Below, piece by piece: positions 56,000-64,000 of a stretch of DNA of 64,000 bases. This stretch comes from Candidatus Omnitrophota bacterium (GTDB taxonomy: Bacteria > Omnitrophota > Gorgyraeia > Zapsychrales > Fredricksoniimonadaceae): contig JADFXH010000001.1 in the NCBI GenBank assembly GCA_015233675.1, positions 209,138 to 273,137 on the forward strand, written 5' to 3'. The position numbers and the translations under genes are program-made. How positions within the stretch are numbered: position 1 is the first letter of the stretch; each line of letters opens with the position of its first letter. Under the pieces are notes generated by a model. It was not told the origin of the DNA. It did not search any database and saw only the letters and a list, made by a program, of their open reading frames with translations.

Positions 56000-56605
56000 A
56001 ATTTATAGCTTACAGGGGCATCTTGCACAATTGGTGGCCTCCAGTATCATATTCGGAATTGGACAGCTGATCATTATTTTTTCCTTTATTGCGTGGGTGG
56101 TTTCAAAATCATTGCGTATCGCATTTGCCATTACGTTGAGCATTTGCGTCATTCCTGTGATTGTGTTGGGGACGATCGGAGGCTGCGAGTTCCTCTCGAC
56201 ATTATTTCCGCTCCGGCATGCAATATAGCCCTTGGATTAGGCATTGACTCCATGATTCACATGGTCAGGGCATTCAGACGGCAGGAATACAAAAACATTA
56301 AAGATACTGAAGCTTGGTCTAAAATCAGGCACCGTTTTTGGCAACCTGTGCTGACTTTCACTTTGGTGATGGTTTTGGGTTTTGGCATTTTTACATTTTC
56401 TGAATTTCCTTCGACCCAGCGGTTTGGAGCAGCTGTAGTATTCGGATCACTAATTGCCGCGATGACCGCTTTATTCGTCATGCCCACAGCATCCCAGCTG
56501 GGCGTTATTCCCCTTAAATTAAACCTTTTACAAAGAATTTCAGCGTATTTTAAGAAGCCTTCACCGTTTAGGAAGCAAAATTCTAAATATGCTTTTCGCC
56601 CTTAA
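56000..56605 (+). pseudogene. frameshifted C-terminal remnant of an RND/MMPL-superfamily transporter
   Basis: Two frames carry RND-like TM segments: IAFAITLSICVIPVIVLGTIGG and NIALGLGIDSMIHMVRAFRR...TFTLVMVLGFGIFTFSE...VFGSLIAAMTALFVMP. There is no upstream N-terminal 800 aa. Confidence 0.55.
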
Positions 56606-58049
56606 CCGCCCCAGCCTCCCACTTTCCTATGCCCGCCATGACGTCTTTAAAGCACAATTTGCCCAACTCATCAAAATTACTCCCTAAAATGCGCTGGATT
56701 CTTCCCGGTTTAGAATAAAATTCACGCATTCCCCAAGCCCCCAACCTGCCTAAATCCTCAATAGTTAAATGGTCGGTTGGCACAACCGGATGAAGGAAAT
56801 CCCACTGGAGCATATCGAGCTTGTCGGGATTGATCCATCCGCGTTTTATCCCATCTGTCCAAATTGGCGATCCGGGAGGCGGCGTAAGATAACCCACCCA
56901 CATAACATCCGGGTCAACTTGATCAGCGAACTCAAAACGCTTTTTTATTATGGCTTCATTGTCATAATCAAAACCGATCATAATATCCCCCACAATGGCA
57001 ATATCACTGGTCCTTAGTATCTCAATGGTCTTGTAAATCTGATCGACCGTGATCCCTTTTTCCAATTTACGCAACTCGTCATCGCTGGCCACTTCAATTC
57101 CAAAGACAGCCATGAACAACCCTGCTTTTTTCATTAAAGGAATATCCTTCTCTAATTTTATCCAATCGCTGGCACACCCCAAGCATACCCACTTCATTTT
57201 AAGGTTGCGCTTTATCTTTTCTTCACAAAATTCTCTGACCCGTTTGGGATTCAAAAGGAAATTGTCCTCCTGGATAACAACCACTTTCACACCAAACTTC
57301 TTTTCTAATAATTCCACTTCGTCGATAACCTTTGCGGCTGATTTTGCCCGCCAACGATTAAAATGGTTAAGTGACCTGGGATCATGCTCGCTCCACTCAT
57401 AACAAAATGTGCAGCCGTGGGTGCAGCCACGAGAAGTAACGATCTCCGCAAACGGCTTCCAATAGGTATGTCCCACATACTTATCCATAGGGAAAAGATC
57501 ATATGCGGGGATGGGAAGAATATCCAAGTCCCTGATTAGCAAACGCACAGGCCCAAAAAGAACTTTACCGTTCTTACGGGATGAAAGCCCCGGAATTTCG
57601 CTAAAATCTGTTTCTCCTTTGTTTAACGCATCCATCAGATCATTGAACGTAAGCTCCCCTTCTCCCATAACAACGAAATCAATATCTGAATTTTTTTCAA
57701 GCGTTTCCTTGCCGAAAAAGGAATACCACAACCCACCGACAACAATTTTAGTTTCTGGAAGAATCTTTCTTATCGCACAAGCCGTGTCATTAAAATACTT
57801 CTGTACCGCAAATCCGCCATAGGAATGTAAAATGTCTCCTAAAACAAGCACCTCAGGGTTCTTCGCCTTGACTTGATCGAGCATAGCATCAAATGAAATC
57901 TCAAGGGCCTTACAATCTAAAACTTCCGGCTGTATTGTCCCCATTTGACGGGCATACGCCGCCCATTGTGCGTGCATTTGATTTGGCGCAACGTGATGGC
58001 CATGTGTTGCCCATGAACCCAACTTCGGTGTTAAAAAAAGAACTCTCAT
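56583..58049 (-). CDS. B12-binding-domain radical SAM protein (class B)
   Basis: N-terminal cobalamin-binding domain and the radical SAM cluster motif SRGCTHGCTFC. Start set to MRVLFLTP, abutting the tetR stop codon. Confidence 0.8.
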   Translation of the reverse strand: MRVLFLTPKLGSWATHGHHVAPNQMHAQWAAYARQMGTIQPEVLDCKALEISFDAMLDQVKAKNPEVLVLGDILHSYGGFAVQKYFNDTACAIRKILPETKIVVGGLWYSFFGKETLEKNSDIDFVVMGEGELTFNDLMDALNKGETDFSEIPGLSSRKNGKVLFGPVRLLIRDLDILPIPAYDLFPMDKYVGHTYWKPFAEIVTSRGCTHGCTFCYEWSEHDPRSLNHFNRWRAKSAAKVIDEVELLEKKFGVKVVVIQEDNFLLNPKRVREFCEEKIKRNLKMKWVCLGCASDWIKLEKDIPLMKKAGLFMAVFGIEVASDDELRKLEKGITVDQIYKTIEILRTSDIAIVGDIMIGFDYDNEAIIKKRFEFADQVDPDVMWVGYLTPPPGSPIWTDGIKRGWINPDKLDMLQWDFLHPVVPTDHLTIEDLGRLGAWGMREFYSKPGRIQRILGSNFDELGKLCFKDVMAGIGKWEAGAVKGEKHI

Positions 58050-58627
58050 TTTTTTCCCTCTTTCACAATACCTTTTGACCAAATATCCATAACTGTTTCC
58101 AACGCCTGCTGAAACGTTATCCCTTCCTGTTGTAAAATTTCCGGATTGATAATGTTATTCACCGCACCTAAATATGCACGGACAGCTAAAGTCGGATTAA
58201 CCTGACGAAATTTTCCTTTTTTAATACCTACGTCAACGAGTTTTTCAAGCTCCATGACCTTTTCAGTACGAAAATCAACAAACTCCTGCCATAATTCCGG
58301 CAACTCAAGCTGAATATCTTTTAAGAAAAACTCAAACCACGGGGCTAATTCCTGCTGTAAAAATAGAATATTTAATGAAATGATTTTTAAGGGGTCTTTC
58401 TCTTTATTTTCGATCTCACCCTGATGATCGTTGATCCTATTTTTTATCCTTGCAACTAACGCTTTAGCAATAGCTATTTTACCGGGAAAATGCAGATAGA
58501 TTGTATTTTTGCTCATCCGGAGATCAGCTGCAATCTCATCCATTGTGACCTTATGGTATCCAAACCGGACCATACGGGCCTTTGCGGCTGTTAAAATCTT
58601 ATCAACTATAGGATTAGACGATTTCAT
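58046..58627 (-). CDS. TetR/AcrR-family transcriptional regulator
   Basis: N-terminal HTH VTMDEIAADLRMSKNTIYLHFPGK. Confidence 0.8.
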   Translation of the reverse strand: MKSSNPIVDKILTAAKARMVRFGYHKVTMDEIAADLRMSKNTIYLHFPGKIAIAKALVARIKNRINDHQGEIENKEKDPLKIISLNILFLQQELAPWFEFFLKDIQLELPELWQEFVDFRTEKVMELEKLVDVGIKKGKFRQVNPTLAVRAYLGAVNNIINPEILQQEGITFQQALETVMDIWSKGIVKEGKK

Positions 58628-59774: not shown

Positions 59775-60659
59775 TCATAGCATCTGTGCCCCAAGGGCGT
59801 CTTTCACCGGATGGAGCCTGTACCAATACACCAGCTTTCTCTTTCTTATCCCGGTATGCTTCCTTTTATAGTTATCCAATTGCTTAATATAGTACCAAAA
59901 TTCATCTTCGGAAAGGTCTGATTTCATCTCGTTTAACAACGCTGAGGCAAGCACGACCTTTGTCGAATCACCTGGCGCAACATGTTCAAAAGTAAAGTGC
60001 CAGGCGCTTCTATAATCGTCAAAATCCAGCGGCATCCCGGTATAATAACAGACATGGCCATGCTTGCGCACATAATCCCAAAGGCTTTTAGCCGCCTCTA
60101 AAGGCAATTGACTCTCATCGATCCGGCGTGAGATTAAATGGCATTTGCGGCAAAATTGGGCATTATAAAAATAGACGGGTTGGCCGCAGATACAACATTT
60201 TCTTTCGCAACTCACCTGAACTTCGATGTCTTCACAGCCCTTGATATACTCCCGGTTCCAAAGGCTAAGCCTTATCTTTCTGACCGGTGTCCCCAAGCGC
60301 TTGAAGTCAGCCAACTGCCGGATCATGTACCAGAATTCTCTTTCCGTGAGGTCTGATTTCATGCCGTTGATTAATGCGGAGGTGAGCACCACCTTCCTGT
60401 TATCACCGGGCTTCCAGTGGTCAAGAACGAAATACCATGGGCTATGGGAATCAGTCACATCAAGCCGCATTCCCGTATAATAGCAGACATAGCCATGCTT
60501 GCGCACATACCTGTAAATTCTCCTGGCGGCTTTTCGAGGGAGCTTGGCCCTGTTCACATGGATAACCAGTAACGCGCAATCGCAGCAATATTTCGCAAAC
60601 TGTGAGGTAATCGTTCTACCGCAGACGGCGCATTTTTTGATTAATGTCTTTCGCGGCAT
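59775..60659 (-). CDS. internally duplicated Zn-ribbon + degenerate HNH-like nuclease-domain protein
   Basis: Two ~145-aa repeats. Each has CxxC...CxxC followed by YVRKHGxVCYYTGMxLD...W(Y/H)Fx(L/F)(D/E)Hx(K/A)PGDxxKVVLxSALxNxMKSDLxExEFWY. Confidence 0.6.
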   Translation of the reverse strand: MPRKTLIKKCAVCGRTITSQFAKYCCDCALLVIHVNRAKLPRKAARRIYRYVRKHGYVCYYTGMRLDVTDSHSPWYFVLDHWKPGDNRKVVLTSALINGMKSDLTEREFWYMIRQLADFKRLGTPVRKIRLSLWNREYIKGCEDIEVQVSCERKCCICGQPVYFYNAQFCRKCHLISRRIDESQLPLEAAKSLWDYVRKHGHVCYYTGMPLDFDDYRSAWHFTFEHVAPGDSTKVVLASALLNEMKSDLSEDEFWYYIKQLDNYKRKHTGIRKRKLVYWYRLHPVKDALGAQML

Positions 60660-60892
60660 ATCTATACTGCTTTCCAGAAAGGCTAAATGAGACGCTCAAT
60701 AAGAATACCGTCGCTTCATCACTGGCCCTAAAAGAACTTATTGGGGCCCCTAACACTTGTACCTGCACTAAACATTGCGGAGGAGCCGGGAGTCTACATC
60801 TAGCACTTATAACCACATTATTTCAAACAAGTTACACAATAATATGTCTTTCGCCCCACAGAAAACCCACGAATTTTAACACTTAACCCTTT

Positions 60893-61213
60893 TCACATGC
60901 CGCGATACACTGATGATCGATGAAGAATTAAAATCACGCCCACCTTCTTGGCTTCTCTATCAATCTCATAAACAACCCGATCCTTTCCTACCCGATAGCG
61001 ATACCACCGCACAGACTTTGGTGTTTTTAAAAGCTTAATATTAGGCCCTTGAAAAGGACTGATTTCTAAATCCTCAAAACACAAATTAAGACGATCAACT
61101 AGATCATCCGAAGCCTTATTATAAAATTTCTCGGCTTGACCTAAGAGGACAACTTCAAATCTATCCACGTTTGATCTTTCTCCAAGCAACACCCTTACCA
61201 GCTTTAAAGTCAT
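60893..61213 (-). CDS. type II toxin, RelE/ParE family
   Basis: C-terminal RVVYEIDREAKKVGVILILHR is the typical RelE/ParE end. Overlaps the upstream antitoxin gene. Confidence 0.7.
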   Translation of the reverse strand: MTLKLVRVLLGERSNVDRFEVVLLGQAEKFYNKASDDLVDRLNLCFEDLEISPFQGPNIKLLKTPKSVRWYRYRVGKDRVVYEIDREAKKVGVILILHRSSVYRGM

Positions 61214-61394
61214 GACTGGCTTTCATGCCTTCGGCTACTTCATGCGATGTTAAGCGGTCGCCAACCTTTTCCAAAATCAGTTCACGGATGAACCCCGTAA
61301 AGGTCTTGTACTCACCATCGCTGATCTTCTTTGCCTGCTGATATAGCGGCATAGGAAGCCGAACAACTACGTCTTTTCTTAATGCCACACTCAT
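61161..61394 (-). CDS. type II antitoxin (cognate of the RelE/ParE toxin)
   Basis: 77-aa ORF immediately upstream of, and overlapping, the toxin. Its upstream region holds GATATCA operator-like repeats. Confidence 0.55.
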   Translation of the reverse strand: MSVALRKDVVVRLPMPLYQQAKKISDGEYKTFTGFIRELILEKVGDRLTSHEVAEGMKASHDFKAGKGVAWRKIKRG

Positions 61395-61733: not shown

Positions 61734-62135
61734 TTAACTGGCATGGCAAAGAATCCAATACTCTCGAGGCGAGATAATAATAGTCCTTTTTATCTTCTTT
61801 AAGACCAGCATGTCCTTATCCCCTGTGATCAAATAATCTGCCTCACCGGACAAAGCCGTGGCGATAATCATGTGATCATTGGGATCTCTGAGATTTTCTA
61901 CAACGACGCGTTCAGGGGAAATCCATTGAGCCTGACTTTTTAAATAACGAATTATCTCTGAAGATTTCCTGGCAGGAATCTTAATCTTATCAATAAGAAT
62001 CCTCTCAACTTCCCCTGCTATAAAATCACCGCAAAGTATCGTGGTGTATTTTAAACAGTGCTCAAAAAGCTCATGACAAACCCCATGAGTTGCAAATGCA
62101 GCAACGAGGACATTAGAATCAAGAACAACTCTCAC
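61734..62135 (-). CDS. PIN-domain toxin (VapC-like)
   Basis: VVLDSNVLVAA N-terminal acidic motif, plus conserved Asp residues (ITGDKD). Confidence 0.75.
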   Translation of the reverse strand: MRVVLDSNVLVAAFATHGVCHELFEHCLKYTTILCGDFIAGEVERILIDKIKIPARKSSEIIRYLKSQAQWISPERVVVENLRDPNDHMIIATALSGEADYLITGDKDMLVLKKIKRTIIISPREYWILCHAS

Positions 62136-62356
62136 GTTTTTAGCCCCAAAATATCTTCATCCGTGACGAAGCCGACTTTTCTGGCATAACCCCTTACGTC
62201 TTTACTCAACTTGCGGAATTTGCGCACAGCTAAAAATTCCCTTAAAGAATCACGGACAAGATCACTAATGGGAACATGCTCACTACGACTAAGATCTTGC
62301 AACTCCTTTTGAAGCCCAACAGGCACTCGAACATTAATTAATTTAGAAATTGACAT
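62132..62356 (-). CDS. antitoxin (VapB-like, RHH/CopG-type)
   Basis: 74 aa. The 4-nt ATGA start/stop overlap with the PIN gene is typical of VapBC pairs. Confidence 0.6.
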   Translation of the reverse strand: MSISKLINVRVPVGLQKELQDLSRSEHVPISDLVRDSLREFLAVRKFRKLSKDVRGYARKVGFVTDEDILGLKT

Positions 62357-62665: not shown

Positions 62666-63289
62666 TCATATGTCTACAACAACAGGCTTGTTCACTAACT
62701 GGTAATCTTCATCTAGAACAGAACAATTGATATACGCGCTGTCACCTGTTTTCTTGATACCATAGCTACCATGAATATGACCAAATACCACATAAGGAAT
62801 TTTTAACTTTCGCATCCTCTTAGCCAAGCTTTTACTGCCTAAAGAGGCCCCTCCAGGAACAGCAGTATCTAAATGTCCATATGCAGGACCATGAACTAAA
62901 AGCAAATCAGTGCTTTTTGGTATTTTACTCCAATAATTTCGATCCAAATTCTCTTCCGTATCCATAAAAGCCCAGTCCATAAAAGTTCTGGTCATCGGGG
63001 AACCCCACAAAGCCATCCCATTAGGCAATTCATATCGCTCATTACGTAAATAAACAGCTTCGGTAAAATACAGTTTTATTTCATCAGGATGTTTTTCACA
63101 GAAAAAATCATGATTGCCGGCTATGACTATAATATGTTTATGCTTTAAGCCGGATAGCCAGCGATTGAAATTAACTAAATCTAAAATAGAGCGAAATTCA
63201 CCGTCCCCAGCAAAAAGCAGAACATCTCCTTCTGGAACTTTAATATTATTATGTTGGGTATGGGTATCGCCAATCGCTACTATTCTCAT
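62666..63289 (-). CDS. metallophosphoesterase (calcineurin-like)
   Basis: Motifs GDTH, GDGEF and GNHDFF. Confidence 0.8.
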   Translation of the reverse strand: MRIVAIGDTHTQHNNIKVPEGDVLLFAGDGEFRSILDLVNFNRWLSGLKHKHIIVIAGNHDFFCEKHPDEIKLYFTEAVYLRNERYELPNGMALWGSPMTRTFMDWAFMDTEENLDRNYWSKIPKSTDLLLVHGPAYGHLDTAVPGGASLGSKSLAKRMRKLKIPYVVFGHIHGSYGIKKTGDSAYINCSVLDEDYQLVNKPVVVDI

Positions 63290-63307: not shown

Positions 63308-64000
63308 TTACTTATTAACGTCGATTTGTAGGAAAAGATTGATACGTTCAACTTCTTTGACATATAGAGGCAAATCCTTTTGGGCACGTGCCAAAACCTT
63401 AAGAATATCTGCCCGCCAACCCTTGGGAAATTTTTTGAAACGATTAGCCATATCAGCAGTATCCACTATAACTGATGTGCAGATCGCCTGCTCAAGATCT
63501 TTGCCCCTCTTGTCCATGTTCTTTCGCCTAGCAGAAATAATTAATTTATGAAAGAAGTAGTTAGCTGGGCTTGGAACCCTAACCTTGACGCCCTCAACCG
63601 AAACGATTATAGAATCTTCCAAAAGAAGCCCCAAATAACGCAAAGGAACCGCTTTAAGACCAAGCTTCTTAAAATTAATAGGACCTGCCGATCCTCTTCC
63701 TTTTTCAGGGGTCAAAAATTCAATCACAAAATCTGCTTTCCAAAAGAATACAGAACCATCCCTTCTAAAATCACATCTAAACCCAAGCCCTTCGAGTTGC
63801 TGGGCAAACTCAAGGTGCTCCTTGCCATGAAATGGATTGGGAATTAAAAAATCTACGTCGTGAGTTACAAAAGGCAAAGATTTCGCCCCCAGATATTTCT
63901 GATAAATAAGAAATGACCAGCTACCGATGAGCTCAATACCCTCTTCGAATAGCCCGTTCTTTGCAAAAATCTTTAAAATCTCTTCTATAATCTTAAGCAC
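63308..64000 (-). CDS. nucleotidyltransferase-fold protein (Pol-beta superfamily-like), N-terminus at or beyond the window edge
   Basis: GSWSF...x20...HDVDFLI resembles the GS...DxD minimal nucleotidyltransferase motif. Confidence 0.45.
   Translation of the reverse strand: MLKIIEEILKIFAKNGLFEEGIELIGSWSFLIYQKYLGAKSLPFVTHDVDFLIPNPFHGKEHLEFAQQLEGLGFRCDFRRDGSVFFWKADFVIEFLTPEKGRGSAGPINFKKLGLKAVPLRYLGLLLEDSIIVSVEGVKVRVPSPANYFFHKLIISARRKNMDKRGKDLEQAICTSVIVDTADMANRFKKFPKGWRADILKVLARAQKDLPLYVKEVERINLFLQIDVNK

Follow-up and report, generated by a model that had tools for sequence, protein, structure and literature searches.

A tandem zinc-ribbon and HNH-like protein family of Omnitrophota: putative single-chain, pseudo-dimeric endonucleases

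Introduction

In this work, we focus on a gene of a Candidatus Omnitrophota bacterium whose 294-aa product contains the same unit twice, each copy being made of a zinc ribbon and an HNH-like nuclease core. The gene lies on the minus strand at 59775..60659 of the window, by which we mean the whole stretch of 64,000 nucleotides that was analysed (contig JADFXH010000001.1, positions 209,138 to 273,137 of the forward strand). Its product is identical to the 'hypothetical protein' HQL12_01330 of a Candidatus Omnitrophica metagenome-assembled genome (MAG), encoded on a 322-kb contig. The duplication, the HNH-type motifs, the make-up of the family and its pattern of conservation are shown directly. 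We consider it very likely that the cores adopt the HNH fold. From there, we infer catalysis, a DNA substrate and a dimer-like action, and we think it probable that the protein is an active nuclease working as a fused pseudo-dimeric HNH endonuclease. A restriction-like or otherwise conflict-related role is put forward more tentatively.

Internal duplication of the protein

The gene and its two halves are laid out as follows.

59775..60659, minus strand: complete tandem zinc-ribbon and HNH-like gene, 294 aa, ATG start
60210..60659, minus strand: half 1 (residues 1-150), with ribbon, two helices and HNH-like core
59775..60209, minus strand: half 2 (residues 151-294), with ribbon, HNH-like core and a disordered tail (287-294)

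When residues 1-150 are compared with residues 151-294 by BLASTP, they align without gaps over 129 aa (8-136 against 153-281) with 50% identity, 70% positives and E = 4e-48. The internal duplication is therefore real and far beyond chance, as a first-pass annotation of this DNA had proposed. Each half opens with a four-cysteine ribbon of the pattern CxxC-x11-CxxC (C10/C13/C25/C28 in half 1, C155/C158/C170/C173 in half 2), also recognised by that annotation, and these cysteines are invariant or nearly so among homologs. The ribbon is followed in both halves by the same succession of motifs, namely VCYYTGM-LD, [D/E]H-xx-PGD and N-x-MKSDL-x-E-x-EFWY. All the motifs listed at first are present, but the spacer between DH or EH and the Pro is of two residues, not one.

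In half 1, the invariant C59 of VCYYTG precedes YYTGMRLD (residues 60-67); the first strand of the core ends on D80-H81, within DHWKPGD (80-86, with P84), the second strand reads KVVLT, and the helix motif NGMKSDLTEREFWY (98-111) carries N98 and the invariant M100-K101, the tail of this half including W134. In half 2, the corresponding elements are the invariant C204, YYTGMPLD (205-212), a first strand ending on E225-H226 within EHVAPGD (225-231, with P229), and the helix motif NEMKSDLSEDEFWY (243-256), which carries N243 and M245-K246 and is followed by W279. Neither half of this protein has lost the catalytic His or Asn (D80-H81 with N98, E225-H226 with N243). In an HNH domain, strand 1 closes on the general-base His, usually preceded by Asp, and the helix carries a metal-ligand Asn or His, which are the places occupied here.

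A core of the Cas9 HNH type

The assignment of each half to the HNH (beta-beta-alpha-Me) superfamily comes from several lines that are individually weak and that agree with each other. The best significant sequence matches are with phage PHROG families and cover the helix and the HNH core: phrog_1035 'endonuclease VII' (E = 3.7e-6), phrog_3322 (1.5e-5) and phrog_3118 'HNH endonuclease' (5e-5), phrog_1271 belonging to the same group of matches and the names being annotations, not tested functions. The match to phrog_1035 extends to the family, since 33 of 62 half-domains scanned singly (alignment A2) reach it at E <= 1e-3, the best at 5.9e-8.

The comparison of profiles points more precisely to the HNH domain of Cas9 (HNH_4, PF13395). 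With hhalign, a family profile of 106 sequences matches a small alignment of Cas9-type HNH_4 domains with 86% probability (E = 4.9e-6, 56 columns). This alignment was seeded with an NmeCas9 HNH sequence, which is 99% identical to database proteins carrying PF13395; the comparison is informative only with this small alignment, whereas hhalign against the HNH sequence of SpCas9 alone was not supportive. In the match, C204 falls on the Cys of CLYSG in Nme Cas9, H226 on the catalytic His, and N243 and K246 on the N and K of NQNKGN. The window protein and the Cas9 HNH domain share a helix, the C-x-Y-S/T-G motif, a D-H-x2-P motif that ends strand 1, a strand of the KVVL type and a helix with N-x2-K, and weak matches of hidden Markov models to the Cas9 HNH domain recur.

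Another feature shared with the Cas9 domain is the absence of a Cys4 zinc site around the core. In classical Cys4-zinc HNH domains, two CxxC pairs flank the core; here, the CxxC pairs belong to the ribbon, which stands apart at the N-terminus, and the core has a single invariant Cys before it (C59/C204) and neither a Cys nor a CxxC pair after it. The first-pass annotation had noted the absence of a second pair of zinc ligands. There is indeed no CxxC after the core, but this is no anomaly: HNH domains of the Cas9/HNH_4 class, the nearest to the family, normally have none. T4 endonuclease VII has two CxxC pairs around its core and an H-x-D-H motif. This arrangement is not seen in the window protein, and the Pfam scan gave no match to Endonuclease_7.

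Predicted structure

AlphaFold2 gives the whole protein a predicted local distance difference test score (pLDDT) of 91 and a predicted template modelling score (pTM) of 0.87, and the half-domain a pLDDT of 89.6. In each half, the model runs through the ribbon, two helices, two strands and two further helices; strand 1 terminates on the His, and the helix after the strands bears the Asn. DSSP places these elements at E76-81, E90-94 and H95-101 in half 1 and at E221-226, E235-239 and H240-246 in half 2, all with pLDDT >90, so that both halves have the beta-beta-alpha topology of the HNH superfamily. The full-length pTM agrees with a fixed packing of the two halves, and fits the single-chain pseudo-dimer suggested at first.

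Foldseek searches of the Protein Data Bank (PDB) ranked HNH domains, and no others, first. The whole model matched best to Cas9 HNH (5vgb, 9j1y, 7mpz), with the type II restriction endonuclease 4l0k, Cap5 and McrA also among its leading matches; with the half model, the Gme HNH nickase 4h9d (TM 0.53) came before Cas9 HNH and McrA. None of the PDB matches reaches significance, the lowest E values of the two models being 0.08 and 0.22. In BFVD, which contains predicted viral structures, four matches reach E <= 1e-3; the proteins matched, from phages or giant viruses, are all uncharacterised, and the named matches lower in the list are mostly 'HNH endonuclease'. Altogether, PHROG, hhalign, the AlphaFold2 topology and Foldseek support the HNH-like module that had been proposed for each half, and we hold this interpretation with moderate to good confidence.

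Complementary states of the predicted active sites

The strand-1 His was scored in each half of 101 full-length tandem homologs. It is present in both halves of 55 proteins, in half 2 only of 28 and in half 1 only of 18, while none lacks it in both. Fisher's exact test for exclusivity (p = 0.0015) ignores the phylogeny and is weak and suggestive only, because the loss in half 1 looks essentially like that of one clade and the pattern may reflect few independent events. Among other positions of the core, the Lys of MKSD is found in 99 of the 101 proteins in each half, and the helix Asn at the N98 and N243 positions in 87 and 86, respectively. At least one half with the catalytic His is thus found in every protein, 99 of them having [D/E]H with Asn and two SH with Asp or Asn. 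The replacements seen in many half-domains include SR, SY, DY, NC and NR.

This complementarity is also observed between paralogs of one and the same MAG. In that of the window, they are DH/EH (the window gene), DH/DH and SR/DH; in MAG JABDGZ, they are DH/DY, DH/NH and CR/DH. Such a pattern would be expected if the protein were a fused dimer able to work with a single catalytic centre, and it speaks against a purely non-catalytic role.

Family, distribution and paralogs

A word-indexed search found 123 relatives, nearly all of 260-315 aa with both halves, and an exhaustive HMMER search with a half-domain profile found 403 clusters at E <= 1e-3, among which are many complete single-domain proteins of 135-160 aa. 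Relatives that bear a name are called 'hypothetical protein', with one JGI entry termed 'DUF983 family'. Their only precomputed Pfam domain is PF27587.1, given for a single homolog (P0002, 307 aa) under an accession that the local copy of Pfam does not report; it may be a very recent Pfam family that covers part of this one. The single-domain subgroup with the best sampling shows no variation in F-D-H, P-R and N-D-M-K-S-D. The first-pass annotation had held that single-copy homologs with a known, unrelated function would speak against it; single-domain homologs do exist, but they are equally uncharacterised and have no known unrelated function, so that they leave the HNH assignment where it was.

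In 59 of the 62 half-domains of tandem proteins, the nearest neighbour is a half of the same type, which points to one old duplication followed by diversification. At least one other tandem form, L096 (269 aa), was found among the loci retrieved for single-domain relatives. In species-representative genomes, all 23 tandem loci belong to MAGs labelled Omnitrophota or 'uncultured Planctomycetales' (binchicken assemblies), with at least 2-3 tandem copies per MAG, a lower bound since one search pattern was used. The MAG of the window has at least three: the window gene, P0010 and P0074. As copies within a genome are ~40-50% identical, they are old paralogs and not the outcome of recent spread.

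Proposed mechanism and comparison with known nucleases

We propose that these proteins are stand-alone, metal-dependent DNA endonucleases of the HNH superfamily, in a family without prior description. The ancestral unit, of ~140 aa, would have begun with a four-Cys zinc ribbon, followed by a helical hairpin and then by a core of the Cas9/HNH_4 type with the motifs C-Y-Y/S-G, D-H-x2-P and N-x-M-K-S-D, and would have acted as a homodimer, in the manner of dimeric HNH restriction enzymes. In Omnitrophota, one old tandem duplication fused two units into a single-chain pseudo-dimer, in which two modules of ribbon and helices would hold the DNA and two active sites would cut one strand each. The window protein seems to have two competent centres (D80-H81-N98-K101 and E225-H226-N243-K246), and a double-strand cut would thus be the default expectation. 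Paralogs with one degenerate site might nick DNA, or keep the dead half for binding only. The role would, more tentatively, lie in genetic conflict, as a restriction-like defence or another accessory nuclease function, and not in core DNA metabolism.

This arrangement differs in several respects from those of its closest counterparts. Unlike the HNH domain of Cas9, that of the window protein is not inserted in a RuvC domain; it is stand-alone, has its own N-terminal zinc ribbon and is duplicated within one chain, and neither a guide RNA nor a CRISPR context is seen at the window gene, where Rfam finds nothing. The Gme HNH nickase, 4l0k, McrA and TagI carry the Cys4 zinc site of classical HNH domains. 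They are homodimers of separate chains, unlike the window protein, and their fold matches to it are non-significant (E >= 0.2). The report on TagI (PMC6212794) describes a dimeric HNH restriction enzyme of solved structure whose nuclease domains jointly form the DNA site; the same would take place here within one chain.

The single-chain LAGLIDADG homing endonucleases offer an analogy, since there too a small homodimeric nuclease gave rise to a tandem-fused pseudo-dimer with diverging halves, which allows asymmetric sites. Their fold and chemistry are however unrelated, and no intron or intein context and no evidence of homing is seen here.

Neighbourhoods of the homologs

All-against-all clustering of the open reading frames (ORFs) at 24 tandem loci and 67 single-domain loci revealed no conserved partner gene. 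In at least 8 of the 24 tandem loci, a toxin-antitoxin (TA) or similar small accessory gene is directly adjacent, with ParE/RHH, RelE/HTH-MqsA, RelE, PBECR2, MazG-like and Bro-N genes represented, and the surroundings of one tandem locus hold Bro-N, YhcG, MazG-like and SLFN-type helicase genes. The TA pairs found next to tandem genes are complete in themselves (ParE with RHH, RelE with HTH, PIN with RHH), and the conserved small antitoxin gene that would adjoin a type II TA toxin in its operon is not seen across the 24 loci. The flanks of the tandem loci show no conservation between loci beyond the coding ends.

Two observations concern the mobility of these surroundings. The same RHH and ParE pair is found on different sides of the tandem gene in two MAGs, downstream in one (L009:11007-11512) and upstream in the other (L011:5778-6283), and its two copies share ~80% DNA identity over 477 nt. 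This implies local shuffling of small cassettes around tandem genes. In L001 (CAZKUL010000101.1), a tandem homolog (ORF 610-1551) stands between two arrays of one 25-bp tandem repeat (499-627, 5.2 copies, and 1575-1739, 6.6 copies) and is preceded by an IS200-like Y1 transposase (ORF 13-477), an arrangement that resembles that of repetitive extragenic palindromes and their associated tyrosine transposases (REP/RAYT).

The single-domain relatives often follow directly on genes for nucleic-acid enzymes. They lie directly downstream of an RNase_T/ExoX exonuclease gene at six loci (e.g. L065:337-1637) and of a REase-ARP PD-(D/E)XK nuclease gene at four (e.g. L069:3940-5408). One is 23 bp downstream of an HsdM_N/N6_Mtase methylase gene (L024:4497-6408), one is downstream of an Eco57I/MmeI-type methylase (L078:2-3254), one follows a WYL regulator, itself after a PDDEXK_1 gene, and one (L029) is beside type I restriction-modification genes. 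Others are near HNH_repeat genes, and one is inside a serine-recombinase island. The genes adjacent to an exonuclease, nuclease or methylase may form several different two-gene nuclease modules. Finally, a 611-aa ORF (L079:690-2525) has a single zinc-ribbon and HNH-like domain N-terminal to an AAA/STAND-like NTPase (AAA_22; nSTAND1 sub-threshold). Its layout recalls that of antiviral STAND (Avs) proteins whose nuclease effector is N-terminal, in a single case that is possibly an assembly chimera. On the whole, the neighbourhoods are heterogeneous and suggestive of an accessory or conflict-related theme.

Surroundings of the gene in the window

Upstream of the gene, the window contains the following features.

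60660..60892, minus strand: intergenic region of 233 bp, no ORF
60893-61213, minus strand: ParE-family toxin
61161-61394, minus strand: small ORF, presumed ParE antitoxin, overlapping ParE on its upstream side, no family match
61734-62135, minus strand: PIN toxin
62132-62356, minus strand: RHH antitoxin, pairing with the PIN toxin
62666-63289, minus strand: calcineurin-like metallophosphoesterase
63308-64000, minus strand: NTP_transf_8 nucleotidyltransferase, reaching the edge of the window

The intergenic region probably carries the gene's own promoter, although it has no Rfam match and no match to a consensus promoter of the sigma-70 type. At the gene as a whole, there is no Rfam match, hence no Rfam intron or structured RNA, and no convincing promoter or terminator signal; its flanks show no notable inverted or direct repeats and no relevant tandem repeats. 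The two adjacent TA modules announced in the first-pass annotation are there, ParE with its presumed antitoxin and PIN with RHH. They are given as context only. The insertion sequence remnant announced with them was not found, no transposase-like ORF being seen by eye in 59.4-62.7 kb. The metallophosphoesterase, the nucleotidyltransferase and the ParE and PIN modules share the minus strand and make up a small cluster of accessory genes.

Downstream of the gene are a YkuD/LysM transpeptidase and, by eye, a TetR-like ORF and a radical-SAM-like ORF. The window has a strong strand bias, nearly all ORFs of at least 120 aa in 1-64000 that overlap no longer ORF being on the minus strand. A 170-aa ORF (56093-56605) is on the plus strand, opposite to almost all other genes; by eye, it looks like the membrane portion found at the C-terminus of an RND/MMPL-type transporter. 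It could be a fragment of a gene, and it abuts the end of a 499-aa radical-SAM-like gene (56583-58082).

Weighing the alternatives

Several observations weigh against an active, fused HNH endonuclease with a conflict-related role. In Pfam, NCBIfam and PADLOC scans, neither the whole protein nor its halves taken singly gave anything above threshold. The Pfam HNH_4 match remains sub-threshold (15.6 bits for a cut-off of 22, E = 0.016, residues 204-229), and it is obtained, even at that level, for 5 of the 62 half-domains only. Profile searches of PDB sequences with half-domain and single-domain alignments give only weak matches (E = 0.06 to 1), those to Cas9 HNH being at E >= 0.27, the fold matches lack significance as said above, and PADLOC-DB 2.0 has 0 families at E <= 10 for this protein. 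Half 2 has E225 where Asp is usual, and the His losses may be few in number. As for the genetic context, no immunity gene, methyltransferase or antitoxin is conserved beside the tandem genes of the 24 loci. Some loci are clearly of a housekeeping kind: the subfamily with Ser-Arg in half 1 has the same position in several MAGs, with ppdK, a sigma factor and glycyl-tRNA synthetase as neighbours (by eye), and another tandem locus lies among glycosyltransferase and GGDEF genes.

These points can be turned into an alternative in which the protein would be a non-catalytic DNA or RNA binder, regulatory or structural, whose active-site-like residues are relics. The replaced catalytic positions, E225, the lack of an immunity partner to tame a toxic nuclease and the housekeeping synteny at some loci would all fit, as would the weak resemblance of the zinc ribbon to ribosomal protein eL37 in the PDB-sequence profile searches (E = 0.06). 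This reading is nevertheless unlikely. Each of the 101 tandem proteins retains at least one His-bearing half, DH and NDMKSD are invariant in the single-domain subgroup, and the near-invariant Lys aligns with a conserved Lys of the Cas9 HNH domain.

Slightly less probable still is a restriction enzyme in the strict sense, whether it acts as the R subunit of a restriction-modification system or as a modification-dependent, methylase-free enzyme of type IV, like McrA. The methylases upstream of the single-domain relatives of L024 and L078 and the type I genes of L029 fit the former; stand-alone tandem genes fit type IV, and McrA and the type II endonuclease 4l0k are among the fold matches. However, methylases are adjacent in ~2 of ~60 single-domain loci and in none of the 24 tandem loci, no methylase is found near the window gene in the readable part of the window, PADLOC finds nothing, and no modified-base reader domain (SRA, etc.) can be recognised.

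The last alternative, and the one that we hold least likely, is a selfish element, that is to say, a free-standing homing endonuclease or a small mobile-cassette nuclease whose genomic copies reflect its spread. It would account for the copies found in each MAG, for the variable neighbourhoods, including the ParE/RHH pair that changes sides between L011 and L009, for the L001 copy between its repeat arrays and beside a Y1 transposase, for the relative in the serine-recombinase island and for a fold that is common to many phage proteins. But the intragenomic copies are too divergent for recent spread, terminal repeats and target duplications are absent around the window gene, the flanks differ between loci, no intron or intein context is seen, and the kept housekeeping synteny of the subfamily with Ser-Arg in half 1 (half 2 being intact) implies vertical inheritance. 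With nothing in PADLOC, no conserved partner, no element ends and one subfamily in housekeeping synteny, the defence or selfish role first suggested for this gene is not established, and a fused HNH endonuclease of tentative restriction-like or conflict-related role is the reading that we retain.

Significance of the family

HNH domains are among the most used DNA-cutting modules, being found in Cas9, restriction enzymes, colicins, homing enzymes and the effectors of cyclic-oligonucleotide-based antiphage signalling systems (CBASS). To our knowledge, the forms on record are nickases that act as monomers and oligomers built from separate chains. Our literature searches, on tandem or double HNH proteins and on HNH in Omnitrophota, found no natural tandem single-chain HNH protein and no description of this family; in full-text searches, 'two HNH domains' was used only in the sense of oligomers, for Cap5, SPARHA and TasH. 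The superfamily is thus already known. What is new is a family that is uncovered by Pfam, NCBIfam and PADLOC and 'hypothetical' throughout, its combination of a zinc ribbon with an HNH_4-like core and, above all, a natural single-chain tandem with complementary active-site decay, together with the expansion of its paralogs in Omnitrophota.

The family offers a compact HNH scaffold of ~135 aa with its own putative zinc-ribbon DNA-binding module. It is also a natural experiment, in which a fusion was followed by the loss of one or the other active site, and it shows a paralog expansion in a poorly known phylum. If these proteins are not sequence-specific, they are one more uncharacterised accessory nuclease family; if they are, a single chain of this kind could lend itself to engineering as a small nickase or nuclease.

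A more ambitious and rather improbable view is that they are natural single-chain HNH endonucleases with two active sites, which act on long asymmetric DNA sites, with a set of specificities spread over the paralogs and a role in defence or maintenance. If this were true, they would be the HNH counterpart of the single-chain LAGLIDADG meganucleases. The 2-3 paralogs of each Omnitrophota genome would then form a set with different specificities, made of double-strand cutters (Asp-His in both halves) and of nickases of the top or bottom strand (Ser-Arg in half 1, Asp-Tyr in half 2), and they would provide these ultra-small bacteria with a partner-less, restriction-like defence or a genome-maintenance toolkit.

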